From positions 1 to 59,090 of IMG/VR virus record IMGVR_UViG_3300029309_000035: DNA of 59,090 nt. One strand, 5' to 3'. A model generated the notes under the pieces. It did no database searches, was not told the origin of the DNA, and saw only the letters and a program-made list of their open reading frames with translations. The stretch comes from a virus (lineage: Duplodnaviria; Caudoviricetes). Below, piece by piece: positions 12,624 to 43,204 of the stretch (the stretch's first letter is position 1; every line of letters starts with the position of its first letter). Made by a program: the position numbers and the translations under genes.

Positions 12624-13409
12624 ATGAAAGATGTCCATGTGGCGATCGGTTGGGACTCCCGTGAAATAGATGCTTATCAAGTATGTGAACATTCACTTGT
12701 AAGACGTTCATCTATACCGGTAGCTGTAACACCCCTTATGCATAACAATCTACGATACTTTAGATTATTTAATCGTGAGTGGCGGATTGATAAAAAAGGA
12801 CAACACTGGGATGTGGAGGACAATGCTCCTTTTTCGACAGAGTTTAGTCACACTCGTTTTCTTGTGCCAGAATTAGCCAGACGTAATAAAGTAAAAGGCT
12901 GGGTAATCTTTTGTGATTGTGATTTCTTATGGCTTGATGATATAAAAAATTTACTGGATGAACTTGATGATAGTTACCCTGTATGTGCAGTTCATTTTAA
13001 TTATGAACCCGAAAGCAATACAAAGATGGACAACAAGATACAAACAAAATACAACTGTAAATTGTGGTCTTCTCTCATGGCTTTTAATATGAATCACAAA
13101 GCCAATAAAAAACTTACACATAGTGCTGTTAACGAAATGAAAGGTCTTGATCTTCATCAGTTTGCTTGGTTACCAAAGGGGCCTGGTAGTGTAGGAGAGA
13201 TAAACCCACGATGGAATTATGTTCCAGGCATTATGGGAGAAAACACACCACTTCAACCCTCAGCTGTTCATTTTTCTTTGGGCGGTCCGTGGATGAAGGG
13301 CTTTAAAGATTGTGAGTTTTCAGACAAATGGTTTGCTGAAAGAGCACACAGAGAATATCAAACAGGAGATACATTAAAGGATATGAAATGTCTACATTTT
13401 CACTTGTAA
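12624..13409 (+). CDS. GT-A fold glycosyltransferase (GT8-like)
   Basis: IGWDSRE, STEFSHTRFLVP, FCDCD (DxD), WSSLM, HFSLGGPW motifs. Confidence 0.8.
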   Translation: MKDVHVAIGWDSREIDAYQVCEHSLVRRSSIPVAVTPLMHNNLRYFRLFNREWRIDKKGQHWDVEDNAPFSTEFSHTRFLVPELARRNKVKGWVIFCDCDFLWLDDIKNLLDELDDSYPVCAVHFNYEPESNTKMDNKIQTKYNCKLWSSLMAFNMNHKANKKLTHSAVNEMKGLDLHQFAWLPKGPGSVGEINPRWNYVPGIMGENTPLQPSAVHFSLGGPWMKGFKDCEFSDKWFAERAHREYQTGDTLKDMKCLHFHL

Positions 13410-15019
13410 CATCATTTAGAGGCGACCATTGGAATATCTATGCCAAAGATTGTATAGAAAGTTTTATCAAACACTGGCCTGAAGACACCAAACTTTATGC
13501 TTATTATAATGATTGGCCCGAACGTGGTCTTCAATCGTACGATCCCAAAAGAGTAGAGTTTATAGATCTTATGGGTGCCTCCCAAGAGCTATGTGAATTT
13601 TTTAAAAAATTTAAAAGTCCAAAAGACACACCCAACTGGAGAACAGATGTTAAACGATGGGCATACAAAGTCTATACCGAATATGAGTTCTTTGTAAAGA
13701 ATCCACCAAAGTGTGATGTAGGTATATGGATTGATGCTGATACTGTAACATACAATGACATACCCAAAGCTAAGCTTGAAGAGTGGATGCCTAAAGATAA
13801 AGATATAGCTGTGCTTGGTCGTGAAGCTGTAAATTATATTGAAGCTGGTTTTGTTATGATGCAGATGACAGAACTTAATAAAGCTTTGTTTGCAGATTTA
13901 TTTGGAGTGTGGAACTCTGGTGAAATCTACAACTACAAAGAATGGCATGATGCGTTTGTGTTTACTAGAATCATGAATCTACATCAAGCACATGGTTTAC
14001 AGATAAATAATCTGTCACCTCATTGTGCTGACCTCAATGCATTCGAAGCCTCACCCCTTGTGAGATACATGTATCACAACAAAGGTCTACTTAAATTTAA
14101 ACAAGAACAAGCTGGTCAAGAACCGCCACAAACAAAAGTCAAAGCAACAAAGACAGAAGAATCAACTAAGAAACCTATCGTTGTTACACCACAGGACTGC
14201 ATGCCTATAGAAGATATTCGTATGAATATTCTTACAAATGCTAAACGTCTGCCAATATCCATAACAAAACGGTGTCAATGGAATGATGAAGAAGTAGCTA
14301 TTGTGTCGGCCGGCCCGTCACTTAAAAAAAGTTTTAGAGAGATACAACAATTACAAAACAGAGGAGTAAGAATTGTATGTGTTAAACACAGTCACAATAC
14401 TCTCCTTGAAAATAATATCCAACCGTGGGCTTGTACAATATTAGATCCAAGACCCTTCAATGAAAAATCTACACATGGTTATGTACGTAAAGAATTGTTA
14501 GCTGAGCCACATCCACGAGTAATGTATTGGGTAGCAACTATGTCTAACCCCGATGTGGTTACACACTTGCTTGATAAGAAAGCAAAGGTTGTAGCTTGGG
14601 ATGCTTATTGTAATGCAATAGAAGGATGGGACTTTTTCAAAGATAGACTGCTTATCACGGGTGGTACATGTGCCGGTATGAGATCAATAGGATTATTACA
14701 CACCCTTGGTTTTAGAACTATGCATCTATATGGTTTTGATTCGTGTATTGAAGGTGAACCAGAAAACAAGGATGAGTTAGCTGAAGACGGTCGTAAGAAA
14801 TGGTTGAAGGTATCGGTTGGTGAAGACAACAAACCATACTGGACAACGGGTGAATTACTGGCTCAAGCTCAAGACTTTGAAAAGCTTATGCAAAGAGAAG
14901 AGATAGATCTTGATATTCATGTTCATGGTGATGGGTTAGTTAAAGCATTATGGGACGACGGATTAAAAGATAAGATAGAAAAAACAACATACAAGGAGAT
15001 CTTCGATGACATCCCGTAA
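13388..15019 (+). CDS. two-domain glycosyltransferase: N-terminal GT-A plus C-terminal MptE/Maf (DUF115)-like domain
   Basis: WIDAD DxD motif and EWHDAFVF in the N-half; VAIVSAGPSL...LGFRTMHLYGFDS in the C-half. Confidence 0.7.
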   Translation: MSTFSLVTSFRGDHWNIYAKDCIESFIKHWPEDTKLYAYYNDWPERGLQSYDPKRVEFIDLMGASQELCEFFKKFKSPKDTPNWRTDVKRWAYKVYTEYEFFVKNPPKCDVGIWIDADTVTYNDIPKAKLEEWMPKDKDIAVLGREAVNYIEAGFVMMQMTELNKALFADLFGVWNSGEIYNYKEWHDAFVFTRIMNLHQAHGLQINNLSPHCADLNAFEASPLVRYMYHNKGLLKFKQEQAGQEPPQTKVKATKTEESTKKPIVVTPQDCMPIEDIRMNILTNAKRLPISITKRCQWNDEEVAIVSAGPSLKKSFREIQQLQNRGVRIVCVKHSHNTLLENNIQPWACTILDPRPFNEKSTHGYVRKELLAEPHPRVMYWVATMSNPDVVTHLLDKKAKVVAWDAYCNAIEGWDFFKDRLLITGGTCAGMRSIGLLHTLGFRTMHLYGFDSCIEGEPENKDELAEDGRKKWLKVSVGEDNKPYWTTGELLAQAQDFEKLMQREEIDLDIHVHGDGLVKALWDDGLKDKIEKTTYKEIFDDIP

Positions 15020-15914
15020 AGTAGTAGGAGTATTTTTAAACTCTGCCACACATCAACCTCACGTTAATACACTCACAGCCATGACTCATGGTATTAGAGA
15101 GACAACAGATAACCTTGTTTTCTTATCTAACTCTACGAAGTATATGGATTGTGATGTGGCTATCATCTTTGGGTCATGGAAAGACAGACATACGCAACAT
15201 CACATTTTAAAAAATGATGTCGTAAATAATCACAAAGGTGATTTATTAGTAGTTGAGACTCCGTTACTTGGCAGAACTATAACAGAAGATCATAGATACT
15301 ACAGAGTGGGTAAAGGACATTACATGGACTCACTGGGATACTTTAATAATAAAAACTCTGATAAAGATAGATGGGGTATTATTAGAACTGATCTTAGCCT
15401 TGATGTAAAAGACTGGAGAAAAGATGGTAAACATATAATGTTTCTTATGCAACTACCAGGAGATGCGGCAACAGCTGATGTTGATATTCTTAAATGGTTA
15501 CAAGATGAAATAGTAAAGTGTAAAAAAATATCTGACAGACCTGTTAGAGTTCGTATGCATCCGTTAATATCATCTTATGACCTATCTAAATTTGAAGAGT
15601 TTGTGGAGAAACAAAAAGATGTTAGCATGGTGTTCGGACATAAAGATCCGATTGCAATGGATCTGGAAAACTGTTGGGCGACGGTTGCCTTTACAAGTGG
15701 AGGGGCTGTGGATAGTTTGCTTGCTGGTATCCCTGTTATTACACCTAGTCCTCTTAACTTTGCTTATCCAATATCATCCCATTCCATAGATGATGTAGAG
15801 AATCCAAAGATGGAAGACCGTCAACAGCTACTTAATGATCTAGCTTACACACAATGGACCGTGACCGAGATGGCTCATGGTCTACCTTACAAACATTTAC
15901 TAGCCAATGACTGA
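15006..15914 (+). CDS. capsular polysaccharide synthesis (KpsS/KpsC-like, GT-B) protein
   Basis: MQLPGD, RVRMHP (HP motif), S..AVDSLLAGIPV, LAYTQWT motifs. Confidence 0.65.
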   Translation: MTSRKVVGVFLNSATHQPHVNTLTAMTHGIRETTDNLVFLSNSTKYMDCDVAIIFGSWKDRHTQHHILKNDVVNNHKGDLLVVETPLLGRTITEDHRYYRVGKGHYMDSLGYFNNKNSDKDRWGIIRTDLSLDVKDWRKDGKHIMFLMQLPGDAATADVDILKWLQDEIVKCKKISDRPVRVRMHPLISSYDLSKFEEFVEKQKDVSMVFGHKDPIAMDLENCWATVAFTSGGAVDSLLAGIPVITPSPLNFAYPISSHSIDDVENPKMEDRQQLLNDLAYTQWTVTEMAHGLPYKHLLAND

Positions 15915-16224
15915 TAATAAAGATAAAGACAAAGAAGATGTCGTTGTAAACTTATTTAAAGATAAAGATGAGCACATCATGACAACAGGTGCAGCTCAAC
16001 AAATACCAACGGAACACTTTACAAAATTAGTTATTGATCAGATTGATCGTGTAAAAGATGATGCTAATAAACATAAGGCTGTCGGTGTTATTGCGGTGTT
16101 GTTTGATGATAAAGGACCTCTGTCTGATTATTTTGCCGGTAGTGTTAACTTACATATGGCCTATGTTTTGATGGACCAACTAAAGAATGTTATACTAGAG
16201 AAACTTGAAGAAGGGACAGAGTAA
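15907..16224 (+). CDS. hypothetical protein
   Basis: coupled ORF of 105 aa. Confidence 0.6.
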   Translation: MTDNKDKDKEDVVVNLFKDKDEHIMTTGAAQQIPTEHFTKLVIDQIDRVKDDANKHKAVGVIAVLFDDKGPLSDYFAGSVNLHMAYVLMDQLKNVILEKLEEGTE

Positions 16225-16634
16225 TGTTAACAGCATTGATAGGTCCAGTTACTGGTCTACTGGATAAATTTATAGAAGACAAAGATCAAAAAGCTAGGTT
16301 GGCTCATGACATTGCTACCATGTCAGAGAAACATGCTAATGCTCTAGCTAAAGAACAGGCCAAAGCTAATACTGAAGCAGCTAAACATCCGAGTATGTTT
16401 GTTGCCGGAGCACGTCCAGCTATCATGTGGGTGTGTGCTATTGGTTTGTTTGTAAACTTTTTTATATTACCGTTAATGACTTGGTTCACAGCCTTGTTTG
16501 CACCAGAAATAAATATGCCAAACTTTGTGGACACAGGTGAACTCATCTCTCTAACCATTGCCTTACTGGGAATGGGTGGACTCCGTAGTTGGGAAAAGAC
16601 AAAAGGGGTTGCCAGAGAGAACATGAAGAAGTAA
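16224..16634 (+). CDS. holin of the 3TM (GTA-release) family
   Basis: LIGPVTGLLDKFIEDKD, FVAGARPAIMWVC, LLGMGGLRSWEK motifs. Confidence 0.8.
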   Translation: MLTALIGPVTGLLDKFIEDKDQKARLAHDIATMSEKHANALAKEQAKANTEAAKHPSMFVAGARPAIMWVCAIGLFVNFFILPLMTWFTALFAPEINMPNFVDTGELISLTIALLGMGGLRSWEKTKGVARENMKK

Positions 16635-16637
16635 TAT
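16609..16637 (+). promoter_or_regulatory. sigma70-like promoter upstream of pqqA
   Basis: TTGCCA (16609-14), 17 bp, TAATAT (16632-37). Confidence 0.6.
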
Positions 16638-16710
16638 ATAAATATCAGTGGACTGCGGTCATTCGATGGCAACCAGCACTGTTTGTTAACCATAACAAAT
16701 GGAGTTGACT

Positions 16711-16785
16711 ATGTGGTCTAAACCAATAATCACAGAAATAGCAATCGGTCTTGAGATCAATAGCTATGCATGTGCAGAGAAATAG
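16711..16785 (+). CDS. pqqA: pyrroloquinoline quinone precursor peptide (MWSKPIITEIAIGLEINSYACAEK)
   Basis: translated by hand; W-x-K-P N-terminus and G-x-E-x-x-x-Y core of PqqA; GGAG RBS at 16701-04; below the ORF-track size cutoff. Confidence 0.9.
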   Translation: MWSKPIITEIAIGLEINSYACAEK

Positions 16786-16815
16786 TATGGTGGGAGCCTT
16801 AGTGCTCCCCCTATT
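16781..16815 (+). terminator. hairpin immediately after pqqA (terminator or stabiliser)
   Basis: GGGAGC-CTTAGT-GCTCCC core (16792-16809), extended by AATAG/CTATT. Confidence 0.45.
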
Positions 16816-17071
16816 ACTTTCGTTCTGCGATCCTGTTCTTGCCACCAAGGGTAGGCTGTACGATCAACGCAACCAATACTTTGTAACTTGTAGATTACAC
16901 AAAGAGAAAAGAGTTGAACCTTTTTTTGGGGAAGATTCTGTCAAATGCTTTTATACCTGTACCGATAAAGATAATATAGTTATAACAACACACAGTGATC
17001 ATGTGTGTGAAAAACAAATACAAACTCCAAGGGGAGATCAAAGGGATTGGCGAAACAGATTGAAGTATTAA
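16787..17071 (+). CDS. small Cys-containing, probably exported protein
   Basis: ATG 1 nt after the pqqA stop; hydrophobic N-terminus ending VLA; four further Cys. Confidence 0.55.
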   Translation: MVGALVLPLLLSFCDPVLATKGRLYDQRNQYFVTCRLHKEKRVEPFFGEDSVKCFYTCTDKDNIVITTHSDHVCEKQIQTPRGDQRDWRNRLKY

Positions 17072-17211
17072 CCTTACAAGATTGTAGTGGAGAAAGATTT
17101 CCAGTAAAAAAATGTAGTCGTGCAGCTTATAAAAGTCCAGTAGTTTATTATGGTAAAAAAATTTCAAAGAGTAGAATACAATCCAATAAAGAAAACAAAG
17201 AGAAGATATAA
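17047..17211 (+). CDS. small hypothetical protein (54 aa, TTG start)
   Basis: hand-translated ORF MAKQIEVLTLQDCSGERFP...; GGAG upstream. Confidence 0.35.
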   Translation: MAKQIEVLTLQDCSGERFPVKKCSRAAYKSPVVYYGKKISKSRIQSNKENKEKI

Positions 17212-17269
17212 GAAGCTGGGTCTTAGACATCGAAAACAACTAGGACCTAAATCACATCTAAGGAGTTAA
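17150..17269 (+). CDS. small basic peptide (39 aa)
   Basis: MVKKFQRVEYNPIKKTKRRYKKLGLRHRKQLGPKSHLRS; ends immediately before the terminator. Confidence 0.4.
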   Translation: MVKKFQRVEYNPIKKTKRRYKKLGLRHRKQLGPKSHLRS

Positions 17270-17303
17270 ATCTCTAGAGGTTTACGGTCCCACCTCTAGA
17301 GAT
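17270..17303. terminator. bidirectional terminator between convergent operons
   Basis: perfect 12-bp stem ATCTCTAGAGGT/ACCTCTAGAGAT with a 10-nt loop. Confidence 0.75.
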
Positions 17304-17330
17304 CCTTTTGACGACGTTGTTTCAATTAAG

Positions 17331-17358
17331 AGTATATATTATTTTGTAGCTTGGTCAA
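17331..17358 (-). promoter_or_regulatory. leftward sigma70-like promoter
   Basis: minus strand TTGACC, 16 bp, TATACT. Confidence 0.5.
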
Positions 17359-17364
17359 GTATAA

Positions 17365-17715
17365 TTATATCTTCCATTCACTACCATAGTTGTGCTCAAT
17401 CCTTATTATATCGTTTTCATCTAGTTTTTCACCTTCCCAAACCTCGAATATCCTTAGATGCCCATTAGAAGCCCTTACACAATGAAGAGTATTTTTGGGG
17501 ATATAAACCCTATGACCACGTGTAAATGTCCACCAGTGGTCTCCTATGAGGGTCGTTGCTTCGCCTTCCATGATTTTCCAGTGCTCATTTCTATATTTAT
17601 GGTACTGAACGGACATTGCCTTGCCGGGATAGACATGTAACATCTTTGTCACCATTTTTGAAGTAGATTTTAACACACGATAAGTACCCCAAGGTCTAAC
17701 AGTTAATTTTTTCAT
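17365..17715 (-). CDS. cupin, mannose-6-phosphate isomerase type II C-terminal-like
   Basis: RPWGTY, SVQYH..R.EHW, E.DIIRI motifs of the ManC C-terminal domain. Confidence 0.85.
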   Translation of the reverse strand: MKKLTVRPWGTYRVLKSTSKMVTKMLHVYPGKAMSVQYHKYRNEHWKIMEGEATTLIGDHWWTFTRGHRVYIPKNTLHCVRASNGHLRIFEVWEGEKLDENDIIRIEHNYGSEWKI

Positions 17716-17804
17716 ACGACAGTTAAATACATTACAAAAAAAATAATTTCAATAGCTAATAAAACCAATAATATTTTTAATATAACCCATAAAAATTTAT
17801 ACAT
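17712..17804 (-). CDS. 30-aa membrane peptide
   Basis: MYKFLWVILKILLVLLAIEIIFFVMYLTVV; coupled to both neighbours. Confidence 0.45.
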   Translation of the reverse strand: MYKFLWVILKILLVLLAIEIIFFVMYLTVV

Positions 17805-18373
17805 TATTGAAATGGTGGACCCATAAACCAACATACTAAGCTGTGTCTTATACCTTCGGTCACAGCTTTGACTCTGTGTAAATAAAAAGATGGAAATATA
17901 ATCATATCTCCTTTATCTTTAAATCCCTCTATCGGTTCTATCTTTCCATCCATATTTTTAATTTGTAATATACCACCCTTGTAATCCTCAAAGTTAGATA
18001 AGTTTACAATCATAGATAACTTTCTAACTAATCCCGGATAAGGGCCATCATATTCTGGTGGGTATATATCTCGGTGCCATTGATAGTGTTGTCCCTTTGT
18101 GTATTCAGTAAACTGTGGACACTGTAAGTTTGTAACATTAAATAAATAATCTTGTTTGTTTATTTCTGATGCAATTTCACATAACTTTGGAACAATCCAA
18201 TGATCAAGTGGATACCATCTTACCTTTGAGTTCCTATCTTTTTTTAGGTCAACTTCTTTTTTCCACATAACTCCGGCTAATTGCTCATCATACTTAGGAG
18301 ATTCTTTAACCATCTCATCACAGAGTTTATCAGGAACAGCTTTGGGTATAGTTACAAAAGTTTTATACATCAA
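17804..18373 (-). CDS. 2OG-Fe(II) oxygenase (prolyl-4-hydroxylase/PKHD-like)
   Basis: WHRD (HxD), RKLSM, Y.GG.L, IFPSFYLHRV..VT.G.R.SLV.W..G. Confidence 0.9.
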   Translation of the reverse strand: MMYKTFVTIPKAVPDKLCDEMVKESPKYDEQLAGVMWKKEVDLKKDRNSKVRWYPLDHWIVPKLCEIASEINKQDYLFNVTNLQCPQFTEYTKGQHYQWHRDIYPPEYDGPYPGLVRKLSMIVNLSNFEDYKGGILQIKNMDGKIEPIEGFKDKGDMIIFPSFYLHRVKAVTEGIRHSLVCWFMGPPFQ

Positions 18374-34147: not shown

Positions 34148-34828
34148 TTATGACATCATAGTTTCCTGGGTTTCCAAAACACCCCCCTTTATTTTATTTT
34201 TAGGGTACCCATACCCCTGTTTAGAAAACACAGCAATCATAAATTTACCACCCTCTAATCCGGGTCGTACCTCGTAGTGCTTACCACTAGTCTGACAGTA
34301 GAAATCCACGTCATCAAAACCGGCTTGTCTACCCATATCCTCAAACTCTTCTGGTGTGTAGTGTTTATAATGAAATTCATTCACCGGAGGTAACTGATGA
34401 GGTCTCACCCGTTCATTAGGTGATGAACATATAAATAAATTTGATTTCTCTCCAGCTAAATCAAATACACTTTGTGCTAAATTAGGCGGTATGTGTTCTA
34501 TAAACTCAAAAGATACGACAGCATCATAGGAAGCTGGCAACCTATCTGTTTTTATTTTTGTAAAATCTTCAACAATATAATTAATACCAGGAGATTTTTT
34601 TGCAAAAGATTCTAAGAACACACCATGAGCCACAGGTGATTTATCAATGCAATCTACTCCACAAGAAAGCATATTGTGTAAAATATATGATCCATATCCT
34701 ATTCCACAACCAACGTCTAAAATGTCAGAGGGTTGTTTAATAAATTCTTTTATTTTCTTCACGGCAAAGTTATATCGTTCCAAATGATCGGCTCTAATAT
34801 TATTGGGATCCATGATTCGTTCAACCAT
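34148..34828 (-). CDS. class I SAM-dependent methyltransferase
   Basis: HLERYNFA, ILDVGCGIGYG, YDAVVSFEFIEH, NEFH. Confidence 0.85.
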   Translation of the reverse strand: MVERIMDPNNIRADHLERYNFAVKKIKEFIKQPSDILDVGCGIGYGSYILHNMLSCGVDCIDKSPVAHGVFLESFAKKSPGINYIVEDFTKIKTDRLPASYDAVVSFEFIEHIPPNLAQSVFDLAGEKSNLFICSSPNERVRPHQLPPVNEFHYKHYTPEEFEDMGRQAGFDDVDFYCQTSGKHYEVRPGLEGGKFMIAVFSKQGYGYPKNKIKGGVLETQETMMS

Positions 34829-35021
34829 TTAATGCTTTCATTCTTGTTGTCCAGTATCGATCAAGTACGTAATACCAACATCCATTGATACATGGTTCTA
34901 CTAAAGCAACTAATCCAGCTTCAAACAACGAAGCACCAGTTAACCAGTAGACAACATTCATAGCTATAAACACATGACCACATGTATAAATAAAAGCACG
35001 TCCAATACTCGTGTTTATCAT
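34821..35021 (-). CDS. DUF2061-like small membrane protein
   Basis: two TM segments; ALVEP..N..WYY.LDR.W motif. Confidence 0.6.
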   Translation of the reverse strand: MINTSIGRAFIYTCGHVFIAMNVVYWLTGASLFEAGLVALVEPCINGCWYYVLDRYWTTRMKALNG

Positions 35022-35617
35022 GTTACAACTTTCATAATACAACCTTGTTTCCAAGATCTGGCGAGTGGTATAACTTCTCTCTTAAATTGTTTACACCACT
35101 CACTTAAAGCTTTCCATTCTCCCTCTTCCCATTTTGGGTATGGAGATATAGGTGATGGTAACAAATCATCAAAACGTATTAATGTTCCTACTACAATTTG
35201 ATTATTAAGTAGATCAAGAACAGTTTTTGTAGATTTATAAAGATCACAATCAATATTCATAAACGATATGTGTCGTTTGTGGTCTTTTTTCCACACAGGA
35301 ATGGTATCTTCAAACCAGCCCTCATGTAAAACTACGTTTGGTACCACCTTTGGTAGCTCTGACACAGCAAAATGTCCCTTCTCTATAACTTTGTGTCCCA
35401 TAAACCACTGCTCAGGCAGCCCTTCAAAGCTGTCAAAGCCATGAAACGTAACATTTTTGTTAAGACTAGCTAAATAATTTATAGATTTACCTTCATATAC
35501 CCCAAATTCTACATAATGTCCCTTTGGATGTAGTATATTTTGCATACAAAATTGATATTCCATCAATCGGTTGTCTAATAAGACCATGGGTCTATATAAA
35601 AACTCCTCTGTTTGCAT
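35018..35617 (-). CDS. TylF/MycF/NovP-like O-methyltransferase
   Basis: EFGVYEG, GFDSFEGLPE, GWFEDT, NIDCDLY.ST, FDD. Confidence 0.85.
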   Translation of the reverse strand: MQTEEFLYRPMVLLDNRLMEYQFCMQNILHPKGHYVEFGVYEGKSINYLASLNKNVTFHGFDSFEGLPEQWFMGHKVIEKGHFAVSELPKVVPNVVLHEGWFEDTIPVWKKDHKRHISFMNIDCDLYKSTKTVLDLLNNQIVVGTLIRFDDLLPSPISPYPKWEEGEWKALSEWCKQFKREVIPLARSWKQGCIMKVVT

Positions 35618-41100: not shown

Positions 41101-41303
41101 TTCCTGAAAATAAAAAAGAAGTATTAGCTGATTATACTTACAATGTTGGTGGTCTTATAAAATTTCCAAAATTTACAGATGCTTTTCTTAAAGGTGATCT
41201 TAAAGTAGCTTTGGCAGAATCTGATAGATATTCAAATGGAAAACCACTTACTCGTAGAAATAAAGCAACAAGAGCTATAGTTACAGAGATTTTAACAGCC
41301 TGA
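38124..41303 (+). CDS. portal protein with C-terminal pesticin-type muramidase domain
   Basis: portal motifs (HPLIIE, GTAVKKVYYD, GFYGLGL, NLPGGFK, PVGTT.ALLE); C-terminal ~185 aa with E...SGVTIGAGYD...LADYTYN...RRN. Confidence 0.9.
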   Translation: MAIEKNPNDISTPLDKAKEKVQAGAAELGINVDIKEEQDEDLAVNVDPITGEVEMDLNEDSGKVLASISEDFYTNLADLMEEDQLEEISNTVFDNYQSDKDSREEWEQTFERGFDLLGLKLEETTEPFDGACTATHPLIIENAVKFQSKASQELFPSKGPVKTQVVGAVTPDKEKQAQRVKDFMNYQLTEEMPEYFDEFEKMLFHLPLIGTAVKKVYYDETLGRPISEFIPIDQFHVSNLVSDLRRADRYTHVIYRSENDLRKDMDAGMYSELDLGDPEQTDRGSITSKAEQIMGLSAYDENPYDPSYQLLEQHLYLDLPEPFNSPTGVAYPYIVTVDKSSKKVLSIRRNWNDGDPRFVKREHFVSYKFVPGFGFYGLGLIHFLGNLTMSATAAMRALIDAGQFSNLPGGFKARGVRVVGDNSPIMPGEFRDVESTGLDLGKSIVPLPYKEPSQTLYQMLGFVATAGQKFADTTDQVVSDATNYGPVGTTLALLEASGKFFSAIHKRLHKSQRDEFKILARINNEFLPTTYPYDIIGQSAEIFKQDFDGRVDVVPVSDPNIPSNSHRLAQAQLMLQLASQSPPGTFNMPEINKAVLAAANVDNPDRFITAQAQAVPQDPIADIMSAAKGRPIKAFPGQDHDAHIAVKTAYMQDPMNGANPVMKNVQPLLMNNIREHMVLRFQEQMGGLMKAQEGQVDQGASLGMIMSQSAQQILQANQLAAQGGLASIEQQNIELQKSELELKKQREMVDAQFKDREIKLKEKEVDIDAMVEAAKIQEKKDNDSNNLTAKVVMDLLKMIDKNKLNGTQELQAGGDVQAFKQAADMAVTQQQPPMPMQTTMTQPQNFLDMARQAQNIPTDPQPETVPEQQEKEQPKMNMGKFTYEQEIGPNSTKLHHPTKTSGVTIGAGYDMKEKSQDTIIEDMASVGVPEDKADRLSLASGLSGKEASDFVKENSDLEITLPEQEKLFTISMSEAFKRADNDLRSLGYDPDQVPENKKEVLADYTYNVGGLIKFPKFTDAFLKGDLKVALAESDRYSNGKPLTRRNKATRAIVTEILTA

Positions 41304-42304
41304 TGAATTATATAACAAACCACGGTGTGGAACTTCCTGATCCTGCCGTTTGTTTTGATGACGAAGGTTACGAACCCAGTAATAATGACATACCTAAAAC
41401 ATACGAGGTATTATCCAGAGCTATACGAGAGTTAGACATAAATTCATTTTCTTTAGGTATCAACAGTCTTTACACTAGTGTTAAGCCTACGGTTACCGTT
41501 CAGAACCAACTTAAATCTGCCTTAGTTGGTTTTACATTACGACAACAATCTAACAATATATCATATGATGGACCTAAACAATTTAAAGAGCTTGGCTATT
41601 ATGACACTATTATTGATACTGATTCGTTACTTGCGTGTCTCGAAAAAGATATTGTTGAGTTAAAATCATTAGAACCTATTAGAAATACACGAATGCAAGA
41701 TAGAATGTTAACCATACCGTTAAGTCATAAGGCTTTTAATATTCTAAACGATGTCTATAGTAAATTAAAGTTATTACCGCAACCGTATTCGATTACCAAT
41801 ATTAATTTACATGTAAGTGATAAAGACGATACCTTTAATGAATACTTTCAAAATGATCAAAAGCATAAACCTAAGAATGATTTGTATACATTACATATAG
41901 ATCCAAAATATACTTACATCAAAACAATTATATATCTTAACACAGTTCAACGGGGTAATGGTCCTTTTGCTTATATACCAGAAAGTCATAGATGGAAGTT
42001 TGATGATGTTGAAATGTTATTCTGTAAAAGTAATCAGTTAGTTAATACATTATCAACTGTAGAACAAAGAAAAATAAATGCCGGTCTTCCGTTATGGGCA
42101 CGGAAAAATTCATACTTTTCACGACAGTTTAAAAATAACACTTCTCTATCTGAACACTTATATAAAAAATTAAAACACTTTACATCAGATAAAAGTAATT
42201 TTATACTATTTGAACCGAACTTTGGTTGGCACAGGGGTACTCATGTGCAAACAGGAGAACGGATTGCGTTACAAATAATATTAAAACCAAACGGAAATAA
42301 ATAA
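41303..42304 (+). CDS. PhyH-like Fe(II)/2OG dioxygenase
   Basis: LHID, IIYLN.V...NGPFAYIPESH, WHRG...ER motifs. Confidence 0.7.
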   Translation: MNYITNHGVELPDPAVCFDDEGYEPSNNDIPKTYEVLSRAIRELDINSFSLGINSLYTSVKPTVTVQNQLKSALVGFTLRQQSNNISYDGPKQFKELGYYDTIIDTDSLLACLEKDIVELKSLEPIRNTRMQDRMLTIPLSHKAFNILNDVYSKLKLLPQPYSITNINLHVSDKDDTFNEYFQNDQKHKPKNDLYTLHIDPKYTYIKTIIYLNTVQRGNGPFAYIPESHRWKFDDVEMLFCKSNQLVNTLSTVEQRKINAGLPLWARKNSYFSRQFKNNTSLSEHLYKKLKHFTSDKSNFILFEPNFGWHRGTHVQTGERIALQIILKPNGNK

Positions 42305-42306
42305 TT

Positions 42307-42495
42307 ATGAGATGTTGGCATTGCCATACAGAGTTAATATGGGGTGGAGATAATGATGTTGAAGATGAGGAAGATCATTATTTAATAGTATCAAACTTTA
42401 GCTGTCCCGGTTGTGGATCTCATGTTGATGTTTATTTTCCTAAAGAACCTAAAGGCACGGCCGTAAAAAGTGATTTAAGATATTATGATAGTTAA
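42307..42495 (+). CDS. small zinc-ribbon protein
   Basis: CWHC...LIWGGD...CPGC. Confidence 0.65.
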   Translation: MRCWHCHTELIWGGDNDVEDEEDHYLIVSNFSCPGCGSHVDVYFPKEPKGTAVKSDLRYYDS

Positions 42496-43204
42496 TCCCA
42501 ATCTTTCGAAAGAAGTATTACAACGACGAGTGTTTAATCCATACTATTACGATTTACATGTTAAAGAATTTTTAATAGGTAAGACAAGACAATATATAGA
42601 TTCTAACGGAGTCGTTCTTGATGTGGGAGCTGGTGTTGGTCAGTACACCCGATGGTTTACGAAACATGCCGATCATGTTAAGGGGTATGAAGCTGTCCCT
42701 GAAGTCTACGAACAACTATGTAAAGTTCAAGATGATTATTTAAATTTCTCACCTTTTAACCTAGCTGTTGGTGATAAACCGGGTAAGGAAAGATTTTACG
42801 TTGATAACAAACGATTATCTAATTCATCTTTTCAAAATTTAGTTGATGGTTATCCTATTGATATTGAAGTTATCACATTAGATGAACATTGTAGATCAGC
42901 TGATAATATTTGTTTTATAAAAATAGATACCGAAGGCACAGAACTTGATGTGTTAAATGGTGCACAAAAAATTATTGATAAACATAAACCTCACATGATG
43001 ATAGAGATTTACGATAAGTTTAATAAATATCCAGTAGATACAACTTTTAAATTTTGTTTTGATAGAGGATACTCTTGTCTTTATAATCACAGAGGTCAAG
43101 GATTAAAACCAATAAATGACATTGAGCATGGTGTAAAAGTAGCTATGACAATGCCAGAAATAACTGATGGAGATTTTTTGTTTTTACATGGCAGTAGAAC
43201 TTAA
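42485..43204 (+). CDS. FkbM-family methyltransferase
   Basis: LDVGAGVG, ITLD, FIKIDTEG.E.DVL.GA, MIE. Confidence 0.9.
   Translation: MIVNPNLSKEVLQRRVFNPYYYDLHVKEFLIGKTRQYIDSNGVVLDVGAGVGQYTRWFTKHADHVKGYEAVPEVYEQLCKVQDDYLNFSPFNLAVGDKPGKERFYVDNKRLSNSSFQNLVDGYPIDIEVITLDEHCRSADNICFIKIDTEGTELDVLNGAQKIIDKHKPHMMIEIYDKFNKYPVDTTFKFCFDRGYSCLYNHRGQGLKPINDIEHGVKVAMTMPEITDGDFLFLHGSRT

Follow-up and report, generated by a model that had tools for sequence, protein, structure and literature searches.

Pyrroloquinoline quinone (PQQ) is made from the precursor peptide PqqA, which is destroyed in the process, whereas PqqB, PqqC, PqqD and PqqE are catalytic (PMC7678222 and PMC9851590, in their available text). 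A PQQ precursor gene has been reported on a phage contig from Lake Baikal (population VP_266) and was read there as an auxiliary gene supporting a PQQ-dependent dehydrogenase, and pqqA is also among the virus-encoded genes of reservoir sediments; going by the available portions of these two sources (PMC7678222, PMC13188868), phage pqqA is a gene of a kind already known. Here we describe a pqqA in the IMG/VR virus record IMGVR_UViG_3300029309_000035, together with its relatives on other viral contigs, its expression signals and its candidate hosts. The window, i.e., the whole stretch of DNA that was analyzed, is the entire record (59,090 bp, rated 100% complete, about 36% G+C). The Baikal phages are freshwater phages with methylotrophs as predicted hosts and also carry a viral methanol dehydrogenase (available text of PMC7678222), whereas the present phage comes from marine samples and a PQQ-dependent alcohol dehydrogenase was not found in the window.

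The open reading frame (ORF) at 16711-16785 (+) is a real, genuine phage-encoded PqqA of 24 codons, with the translation MWSKPIITEIAIGLEINSYACAEK. An earlier note on this DNA had pointed to the same ORF with its GGAG, had called it a PqqA of alphaproteobacterial type unaccompanied by pqqBCDE, and had named the lack of a family-model match or of Glu/Tyr conservation among phage homologues as grounds for giving the assignment up. Each of these readings was confirmed by the searches reported here, and neither ground for abandoning them materialized. The peptide matches Pfam family PF08042 with 32.8 bits (gathering cut-off 21.1, E-value 6.8e-8) over model positions 1-19 of 19, and the NCBIfam equivalog TIGR02107 with 35.2 bits (cut-off 20, E-value 7.6e-9) over model positions 1-21 of 21, so that its assignment to PqqA is far beyond chance. 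The pair of residues cross-linked by PqqE corresponds to Glu15 and Tyr19 (E15-I-N-S-Y19), with three residues between them. A six-frame scan found this single PqqA site in the whole record. GGAG or AGGAG precedes nearly all of the phage and bacterial pqqA copies listed. (An alternative in-frame ATG at 16699 was rejected as the start, as other lineages do not conserve it and the Met at 16711 is where the alignments to the family models begin.) The exact peptide is absent from a collection of 15 billion proteins, which fits the view that gene callers miss the ORF. With tblastn, the peptide matched none of 50,697 cultured phage records at E-values up to 10 (a search constrained by the brevity of the query and by the low-complexity filter), and neither PDB nor PADLOC yielded a match to the peptide.

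Relatives of the phage were retrieved via the holin gene upstream of pqqA, which gave 80 viral loci, 13 with a holin at least 92% identical and the rest at 48-57%. When the peptide was searched with tblastn, which puts no constraint on the cross-link residues, pqqA was found in 10 of the 13 close relatives (L002-L010 and L013) and in none of the 70 other holin-retrieved loci. Glu15 and Tyr19 are kept in all ten, with silent GAG/GAA variation in the Glu codon. The window and the ten relatives comprise nine distinct nucleotide sequences with 17 variable sites (4, 2 and 11 at the first, second and third codon positions, respectively), and the ratio of non-synonymous to synonymous variation (pN/pS) is 0.18. 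Regarding the core (codons 13-24, GLEINSYACAEK), pN is 0 and pS 0.26, five codons varying silently, and all replacements lie in the leader (pN 0.108). Purely silent variation in the core marks the ORF as a translated peptide in which that part is strongly constrained. The region down to the convergent genes is variable among the close relatives; in L011 (4409-5300), L012 and L048 a different sequence follows the holin, and the next ORF in L011 appears lysozyme-like by eye.

A degenerate DNA pattern (W..P...[DE]h.hGhE[IV]N.Y) applied to IMG/VR contigs matched at least 120 viral contigs, giving at least 119 further viral loci with a PqqA-like ORF and 85 distinct peptides among the matches listed. 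The peptides of the 119 listed loci are mostly of the type ...EINCYACAE[IL] (74 loci), while 33 end in ...EINSYACAEK like that of the window and 12 are of other types. About a dozen of these loci belong to close kin of the phage, seven being the same contigs as holin-derived loci; about 55 carry a terminase, portal or capsid that is 35-70% identical and have pqqA near the portal/capsid module, not the holin; and about 50 have nothing in common with this phage. Long ORFs sampled from the unrelated contigs matched phage families in 8 of 10 cases, including T4-type baseplate wedge (636 bits), tape measure, large terminase, portal/adaptor and tail protein (760 bits). A crude analysis of the neighbors of pqqA gave 44 upstream and 45 downstream families, with 60 distinct pairs in the 111 loci that have both neighbors. 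PqqB, PqqC, PqqD or PqqE was found in the fetched flanks of none of the 119 listed loci.

The window encodes the hallmarks of a phage (large terminase, portal, DNA polymerase, primase/helicase, ribonucleotide reductase, structural proteins and holin). Family scans detected none of pqqB, pqqC, pqqD and pqqE in the 59-kb record (the pqqC control scored in no genome, so that the pqqC scan is weak alone), and tblastn of PqqB-E from the host group described below yielded only chance matches in the window (best E-value 0.63), the same queries matching two other host loci at 60-95% identity as positive controls. The record combines a bona fide phage genome with a host-derived metabolic gene, which is one mark of an auxiliary metabolic gene.

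A stricter pattern applied to genomes matched at least 120 genome loci. Among the 121 matches listed, 48 have the form MAWTKP.I.EISVGLEINSYACAEK and are identical to the phage peptide over the last 12 residues; their sources are small genomes of marine Alphaproteobacteria, obtained from single cells or assembled from metagenomes. The peptide of the window is identical to the host-group peptides at 19 of 23 positions, and those of some other phage contigs at up to 22 of 23. The host pathway presupposed by the earlier note is present in full in these candidates. The pqqE gene was found with 568-575 bits (cut-off 381) in four of five genomes tested, and one host-group locus holds a complete operon of pqqA, pqqB (390 bits), pqqC (346 bits), pqqD (81 bits) and pqqE (568 bits), followed by a pseudoazurin-like gene. 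A few kb beyond it lies a PQQ-dependent dehydrogenase of the methanol/ethanol family (668 bits, cut-off 480), accompanied by a cytochrome c of the methanol-metabolism type, which stays below its cut-off, together with a MoxJ-like binding protein and a quinoprotein-associated SoxYZ-like carrier; the gene group is an xoxF-like module.

The candidate order is represented by 42 species-level genomes of 0.8-2.0 Mb, of which 39 carry pqqA, with one to five matches each. The pqqE gene scored above cut-off in 20 of 41 relatives searched (many of the genomes being incomplete) and in all of five marine genomes with an EINCY-type peptide. In genomes of this order (G001-G059), one pqqA copy is part of a pqqABCDE operon, while each of the others is a solitary gene followed by a 3' hairpin of its own. 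From the similarity of the peptides, the G+C content and a common leader, described below, we infer that the host belongs to this small-genome marine alphaproteobacterial order. The most phage-like of the genome matches (L085) is a 13.8-kb contig with a portal, several PHROG families, pqqA, the 5' hairpin described below and the companion gene orfX; it is binned in a 4.1-Mb metagenome-assembled genome titled Maricaulis sp., in which a true pqqE was not found, and is probably a misbinned phage contig.

We consider it likely that the phage supplies PqqA as a consumable substrate to the PQQ pathway of its host. Glu and Tyr of the ribosomal peptide would be cross-linked and excised to give one molecule of PQQ, and extra PqqA would be fed into the PqqB, PqqC, PqqD and PqqE machinery of the host during infection. 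The supply of PQQ to a periplasmic xoxF-like alcohol dehydrogenase, and hence respiratory energy, might thereby be kept up or raised at a time when expression of the host pqqA may fail or host transcription declines. A cassette of predicted sigma-70 promoter, 5' stem-loop, Shine-Dalgarno sequence, ORF and 3' hairpin (Table 1) would suit a stable and abundant small mRNA. Because PqqA is the sole part of the pathway that is consumed stoichiometrically, it is the cheapest part for a phage to carry; and as PqqA is destroyed while the enzymes are catalytic and the candidate hosts hold pqqA in several copies, the simplest model is that the phage feeds substrate to enzymes already present. [quoted passage not shown] What we infer in this account is which bacteria serve as host, that the gene is expressed during infection, that the peptide is processed to PQQ and that the phage benefits.

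Several observations weigh against substrate supply. PqqB and PqqC have been named as possible rate-limiting steps (available text of PMC9851590); if they limit synthesis in the host, extra substrate would be of little help. The presence of Glu and Tyr in the 119 pattern-derived loci is by construction, and their conservation there is circular because the search pattern required both residues. Two of the close relatives (L010 and L013) have four changes in the leader, including E9V, and three of the 13 (L011, L012 and L048) have other sequence in place of pqqA, from which it follows that the gene is accessory and dispensable. The nearest cultured phages, at 39-46% identity, infect Pelagibacter and roseobacters, and a search for the phage terminase in the candidate order's 42 genomes found no copy, an empty answer that shows nothing by itself. 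In four metatranscriptome libraries, which belong to four studies of marine or seawater samples, there are contigs that cover the ORF with 95-99% identity (e.g., 16649-16945, 16683-16833 and 16665-16929); they give no strand or level, may stem from DNA carry-over and cover the neighboring genes too, and are thus compatible with transcription, no more. (The end of contig X1 at 16649, although close to where the transcript is predicted to start, cannot be claimed as a transcript start, as contig X4, at 16517-16667, crosses this point.)

Table 1. Positions of the features at the pqqA locus of the window
Feature	Position	Strand	Basis or remark
Holin, upstream neighbor of pqqA, end of structural/lysis module	16224..16634	+	phrog_3427, E-value 2e-30
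Predicted sigma-70-type promoter TTGCCA-17-TAATAT	16609..16637	+	Inside 3' end of holin gene; -10 overlaps holin stop codon; 9/12 match
Conserved 5' hairpin with invariant bulged/unpaired bases	16647..16680	+	Alignment of 29 distinct instances
Putative alternative helix sequestering GGAG	16674..16707	+	Minimum-free-energy and centroid fold of 16644-16815
Shine-Dalgarno sequence GGAG	16701..16704	+	6 nucleotides 5' of ATG
pqqA, 24-residue PQQ precursor peptide	16711..16785	+	PF08042 and TIGR02107 matches; pN/pS 0.18
orfX, 94 residues, hydrophobic, signal-peptide-like N-terminus, four conserved Cys	16787..17071	+	ATG 1 nucleotide after pqqA stop
G+C-rich 3' hairpin GGGAGCCTTAGTGCTCCC	16792..16809	+	6 pairs, 5 of them G-C; starts 7 nucleotides after pqqA stop

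The 5' hairpin upstream of pqqA is conserved as a structure. In the alignment of its instances 96.6% of the cells are paired, and 7 of the 11 pairs show compensatory double changes; the covariation score of 0.318 was reached by none of 500 shuffles, and controls slid along the sequence gave at most 0.073. A covariance model finds one site in the window (49.7 bits, next best 10.6) and matches 36 of the 119 listed pattern-derived pqqA loci as well as all ten pqqA loci of the holin kin (46 in total), always just upstream of pqqA (e.g., L203:618-654, L237:1365-1400, L292:1183-1222(-) and L320:706-744). The sequences from which the model was built match by construction, and the informative part is the absence of the element elsewhere: none was found in the remainder of about 1.44 Mb of phage DNA, including 70 loci without pqqA. 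Rfam 15 gave no match at E-values up to 1 on either strand of 16300-17400, and the hairpin was not found upstream of the fetched bacterial pqqA copies, except on the misbinned phage contig. At four viral loci (L237, L272, L279 and L295), a second recurring hairpin (GGTGAGTTCCTAGTAACAGAATACTCACC and variants) stands at the end of the gene preceding pqqA and may be the terminator of that gene.

Among the 42 genomes of the candidate order, the model matches only G021, with 47.6 bits; the hairpin and spacer of this genome are 82.5% identical to 16647-16708 of the window over 63 nucleotides. The match (L333:1501-1540(-), i.e., G021:C2:10943-10982) lies directly upstream of a chromosomal rpoH (L334:10019-10918(-), 343 bits, cut-off 323) that is flanked by purA and rluD. 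It shows an exchange of sequence, in one direction or the other, between these phages and the candidate order, and it marks the element as an expression signal that is not tied to the chemistry of PqqA. A role as a general rpoH leader was considered and rejected, since four of five rpoH loci lack the hairpin (best 11.9 bits) and it occurs in only one of the 42 genomes. In the window, the 3' strand of the conserved hairpin is also the 5' strand of the putative alternative helix, so that the two compete. The consensus fold of the ten close relatives holds this helix with only one compensatory pair, and it is not evident in the other phage lineages.

The earlier note had described pqqA as a stand-alone transcription unit with its own promoter, embedded in the holin gene, and a hairpin right after the stop codon. 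The promoter sequence is present and its placement is conserved, but the site is a prediction that does not stand above chance alone, seven promoter-like sites having been found in 15500-18000 against 9.1 +/- 3.2 in shuffles. A sigma-70-like promoter with a -10 ending 4-10 nucleotides before the 5' hairpin does recur across contexts, with a mean best score of 8.0/12 against 4.58 at 900 control positions and scores of at least 9/12 in 12 of 30 hairpin instances (not independent of each other) against 3.4% of the controls. This recurrent placement fits a stem-loop at the 5' end of the transcript and lends the predicted promoter some support. The 3' hairpin is likewise present, but it overlaps the start of orfX, being made of the signal-peptide codons of that gene, and a consensus scan does not raise it above chance (one terminator-like site found, 1.2 +/- 1.3 expected). 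Of 30 distinct cassettes with the 5' element, 19 have a G+C hairpin within 25 nucleotides of the stop; so do 19 of the 73 that lack the element and 29 of 357 random 45-mers. The relatives that lack orfX (L010 and L013) have a different hairpin at the same place, and bacterial pqqA copies have a hairpin after the stop as well. As the ATG of orfX follows so closely and the hairpin lies inside orfX, pqqA is not strictly a unit on its own. The transcription unit in this phage is probably pqqA-orfX, translationally coupled, perhaps with attenuation at the 3' hairpin.

The companion orfX belongs to a family that is apparently virus-only (52 clusters of homologues, none of them named, and exclusively viral neighbors in the Atlas), and no Pfam, PDB or PADLOC match to it was found. 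It stands directly downstream of pqqA in 22 of its 24 occurrences in the fetched loci, is absent from 70 phage loci without pqqA, and moves with pqqA between phage contexts. This linkage, together with the place of the cassette behind the holin in this phage, speaks for a different role, in which the peptide, perhaps with the putatively secreted Cys-rich orfX product, would yield a product or signal other than PQQ or act unmodified near the lysis genes. We regard such a role as unlikely: orfX is present in only 15 of the 119 listed pattern-derived pqqA loci, which indicates that PqqA does not need it, pqqA occurs in many contexts unrelated to lysis, no enzymatic family is recognizable in orfX, and the peptide combines an equivalog-level PqqA match with a core identical to that of the hosts.

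There is similarly little probability that pqqA is a mobile moron, i.e., recently captured host DNA that is passed between phages and kept by its mobility and strong expression signals with little benefit. In its favor, pqqA is present in some close relatives and absent from others, its place is a hypervariable stretch where convergent modules meet, and the same cassette with its 5' and 3' hairpins appears in many genomic contexts, with a leader in common with a host rpoH gene. However, purifying selection acts on the gene, whose core has a non-synonymous rate of zero, the diversity of peptides among the listed matches across very different phage lineages implies long retention, and many contigs have pqqA embedded in structural operons without the cassette signals. 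The earlier note had also offered two functions, of which substrate supply, with a boost of PQQ as its presumed effect, is favored here; the other, a decoy for PqqD or PqqE, which would bind them unproductively and shut down PQQ synthesis in the host (e.g., to redirect radical-SAM or S-adenosylmethionine resources or to silence a PQQ-dependent response), would account for a peptide without enzymes and for a leader that differs from the host type at several positions and concentrates the variation, but is very improbable, as it has no need of the two cross-link residues and yet Glu15, Tyr19 and the whole host-identical core are kept under silent variation in all ten relatives, some phage peptides are almost the same as host peptides, and the multiplication of pqqA in candidate hosts points to a demand for substrate.

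Concerning the remainder of the phage, its nearest cultured relatives are distant: the terminase is 39-40% identical to those of the Pelagibacter phages HTVC023P and HTVC027P, and the DNA polymerase is about 46% identical to those of HTVC103P, HTVC104P and HTVC115P and about 40% to those of roseophages. The holin DNA matches the holin of Roseobacter phage CRP-701 at 76.5%. No tRNA genes were found in the window. Other accessory-looking genes lie at 17365-17715(-), 17804-18373(-), 13388-15019(+), 41303-43204(+) and 34148-35617(-); the accessory-looking products include a cupin/mannose-6-phosphate-isomerase-like protein, a 2OG-Fe(II) oxygenase, an MptE-like domain, a PhyH-like dioxygenase and several methyltransferases (FkbM, TylF-like).

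In the periplasm, PQQ-dependent dehydrogenases oxidize small alcohols, methanol among them, and thereby supply the respiratory chain. If substrate supply is the true role of the phage gene, phages that top up the PQQ substrate would affect the conversion of volatile carbon to energy in infected marine bacteria. At 75 nucleotides, pqqA is shorter than many gene callers report; this, and the absence of the exact peptide from the protein collection although at least 119 other viral contigs carry a relative, makes it likely that the class goes unseen when viral metabolic genes are surveyed. The leader hairpin, present at phage pqqA and at one host rpoH, is a concrete small RNA element to test. A wider reading, which we put forward tentatively and hold to be rather doubtful, is that enzyme-less pqqA is pervasive and overlooked in podo-, myo- and sipho-like marine phages, where it would tune alcohol oxidation of the xoxF type in small-genome Alphaproteobacteria, and that in about one third of the cases a new cis-regulatory RNA, the 5' hairpin in common with the host rpoH leader, would alternate with the helix sequestering the Shine-Dalgarno sequence and make peptide synthesis responsive to a stress or infection signal. 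Four points were not found described in the available portions of the literature on viral pqqA, supplements apart: that the gene occurs in many lineages of marine phages, that the enzymes are consistently missing, that there is a link to small-genome Alphaproteobacteria with pqqA in multiple copies, and that the cassette has a covarying leader.

Compared with the PqqA of bacterial pqqABCDE operons, the phage peptide has the same length, the same W-x-x-P leader and the same G-x-E-x-x-x-Y core. Unlike in those operons, the phage pqqA has no pqqB-E anywhere in its genome and is preceded by a covarying hairpin. Linkage to pqqB, pqqC, pqqD or pqqE, a feature of PqqA that is lacking in the phage, is not universal in bacteria either, as the candidate order has unlinked copies. 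The phage gene resembles these extra stand-alone bacterial copies in that it lies apart from pqqBCDE and brings its own signals for expression as well as a hairpin at its 3' end; the difference is that they reside permanently in a cell with the enzymes, whereas the phage copy arrives by infection. The pqqA described here cleanly exemplifies auxiliary genes that provide a substrate and not an enzyme. An analogy is provided by cyanophage psbA, which encodes the D1 protein, in that the phage carries only the rapidly consumed component of an energy system of its host; D1 is a turned-over subunit of an unrelated pathway, whereas PqqA is a substrate destroyed in the making of a cofactor.

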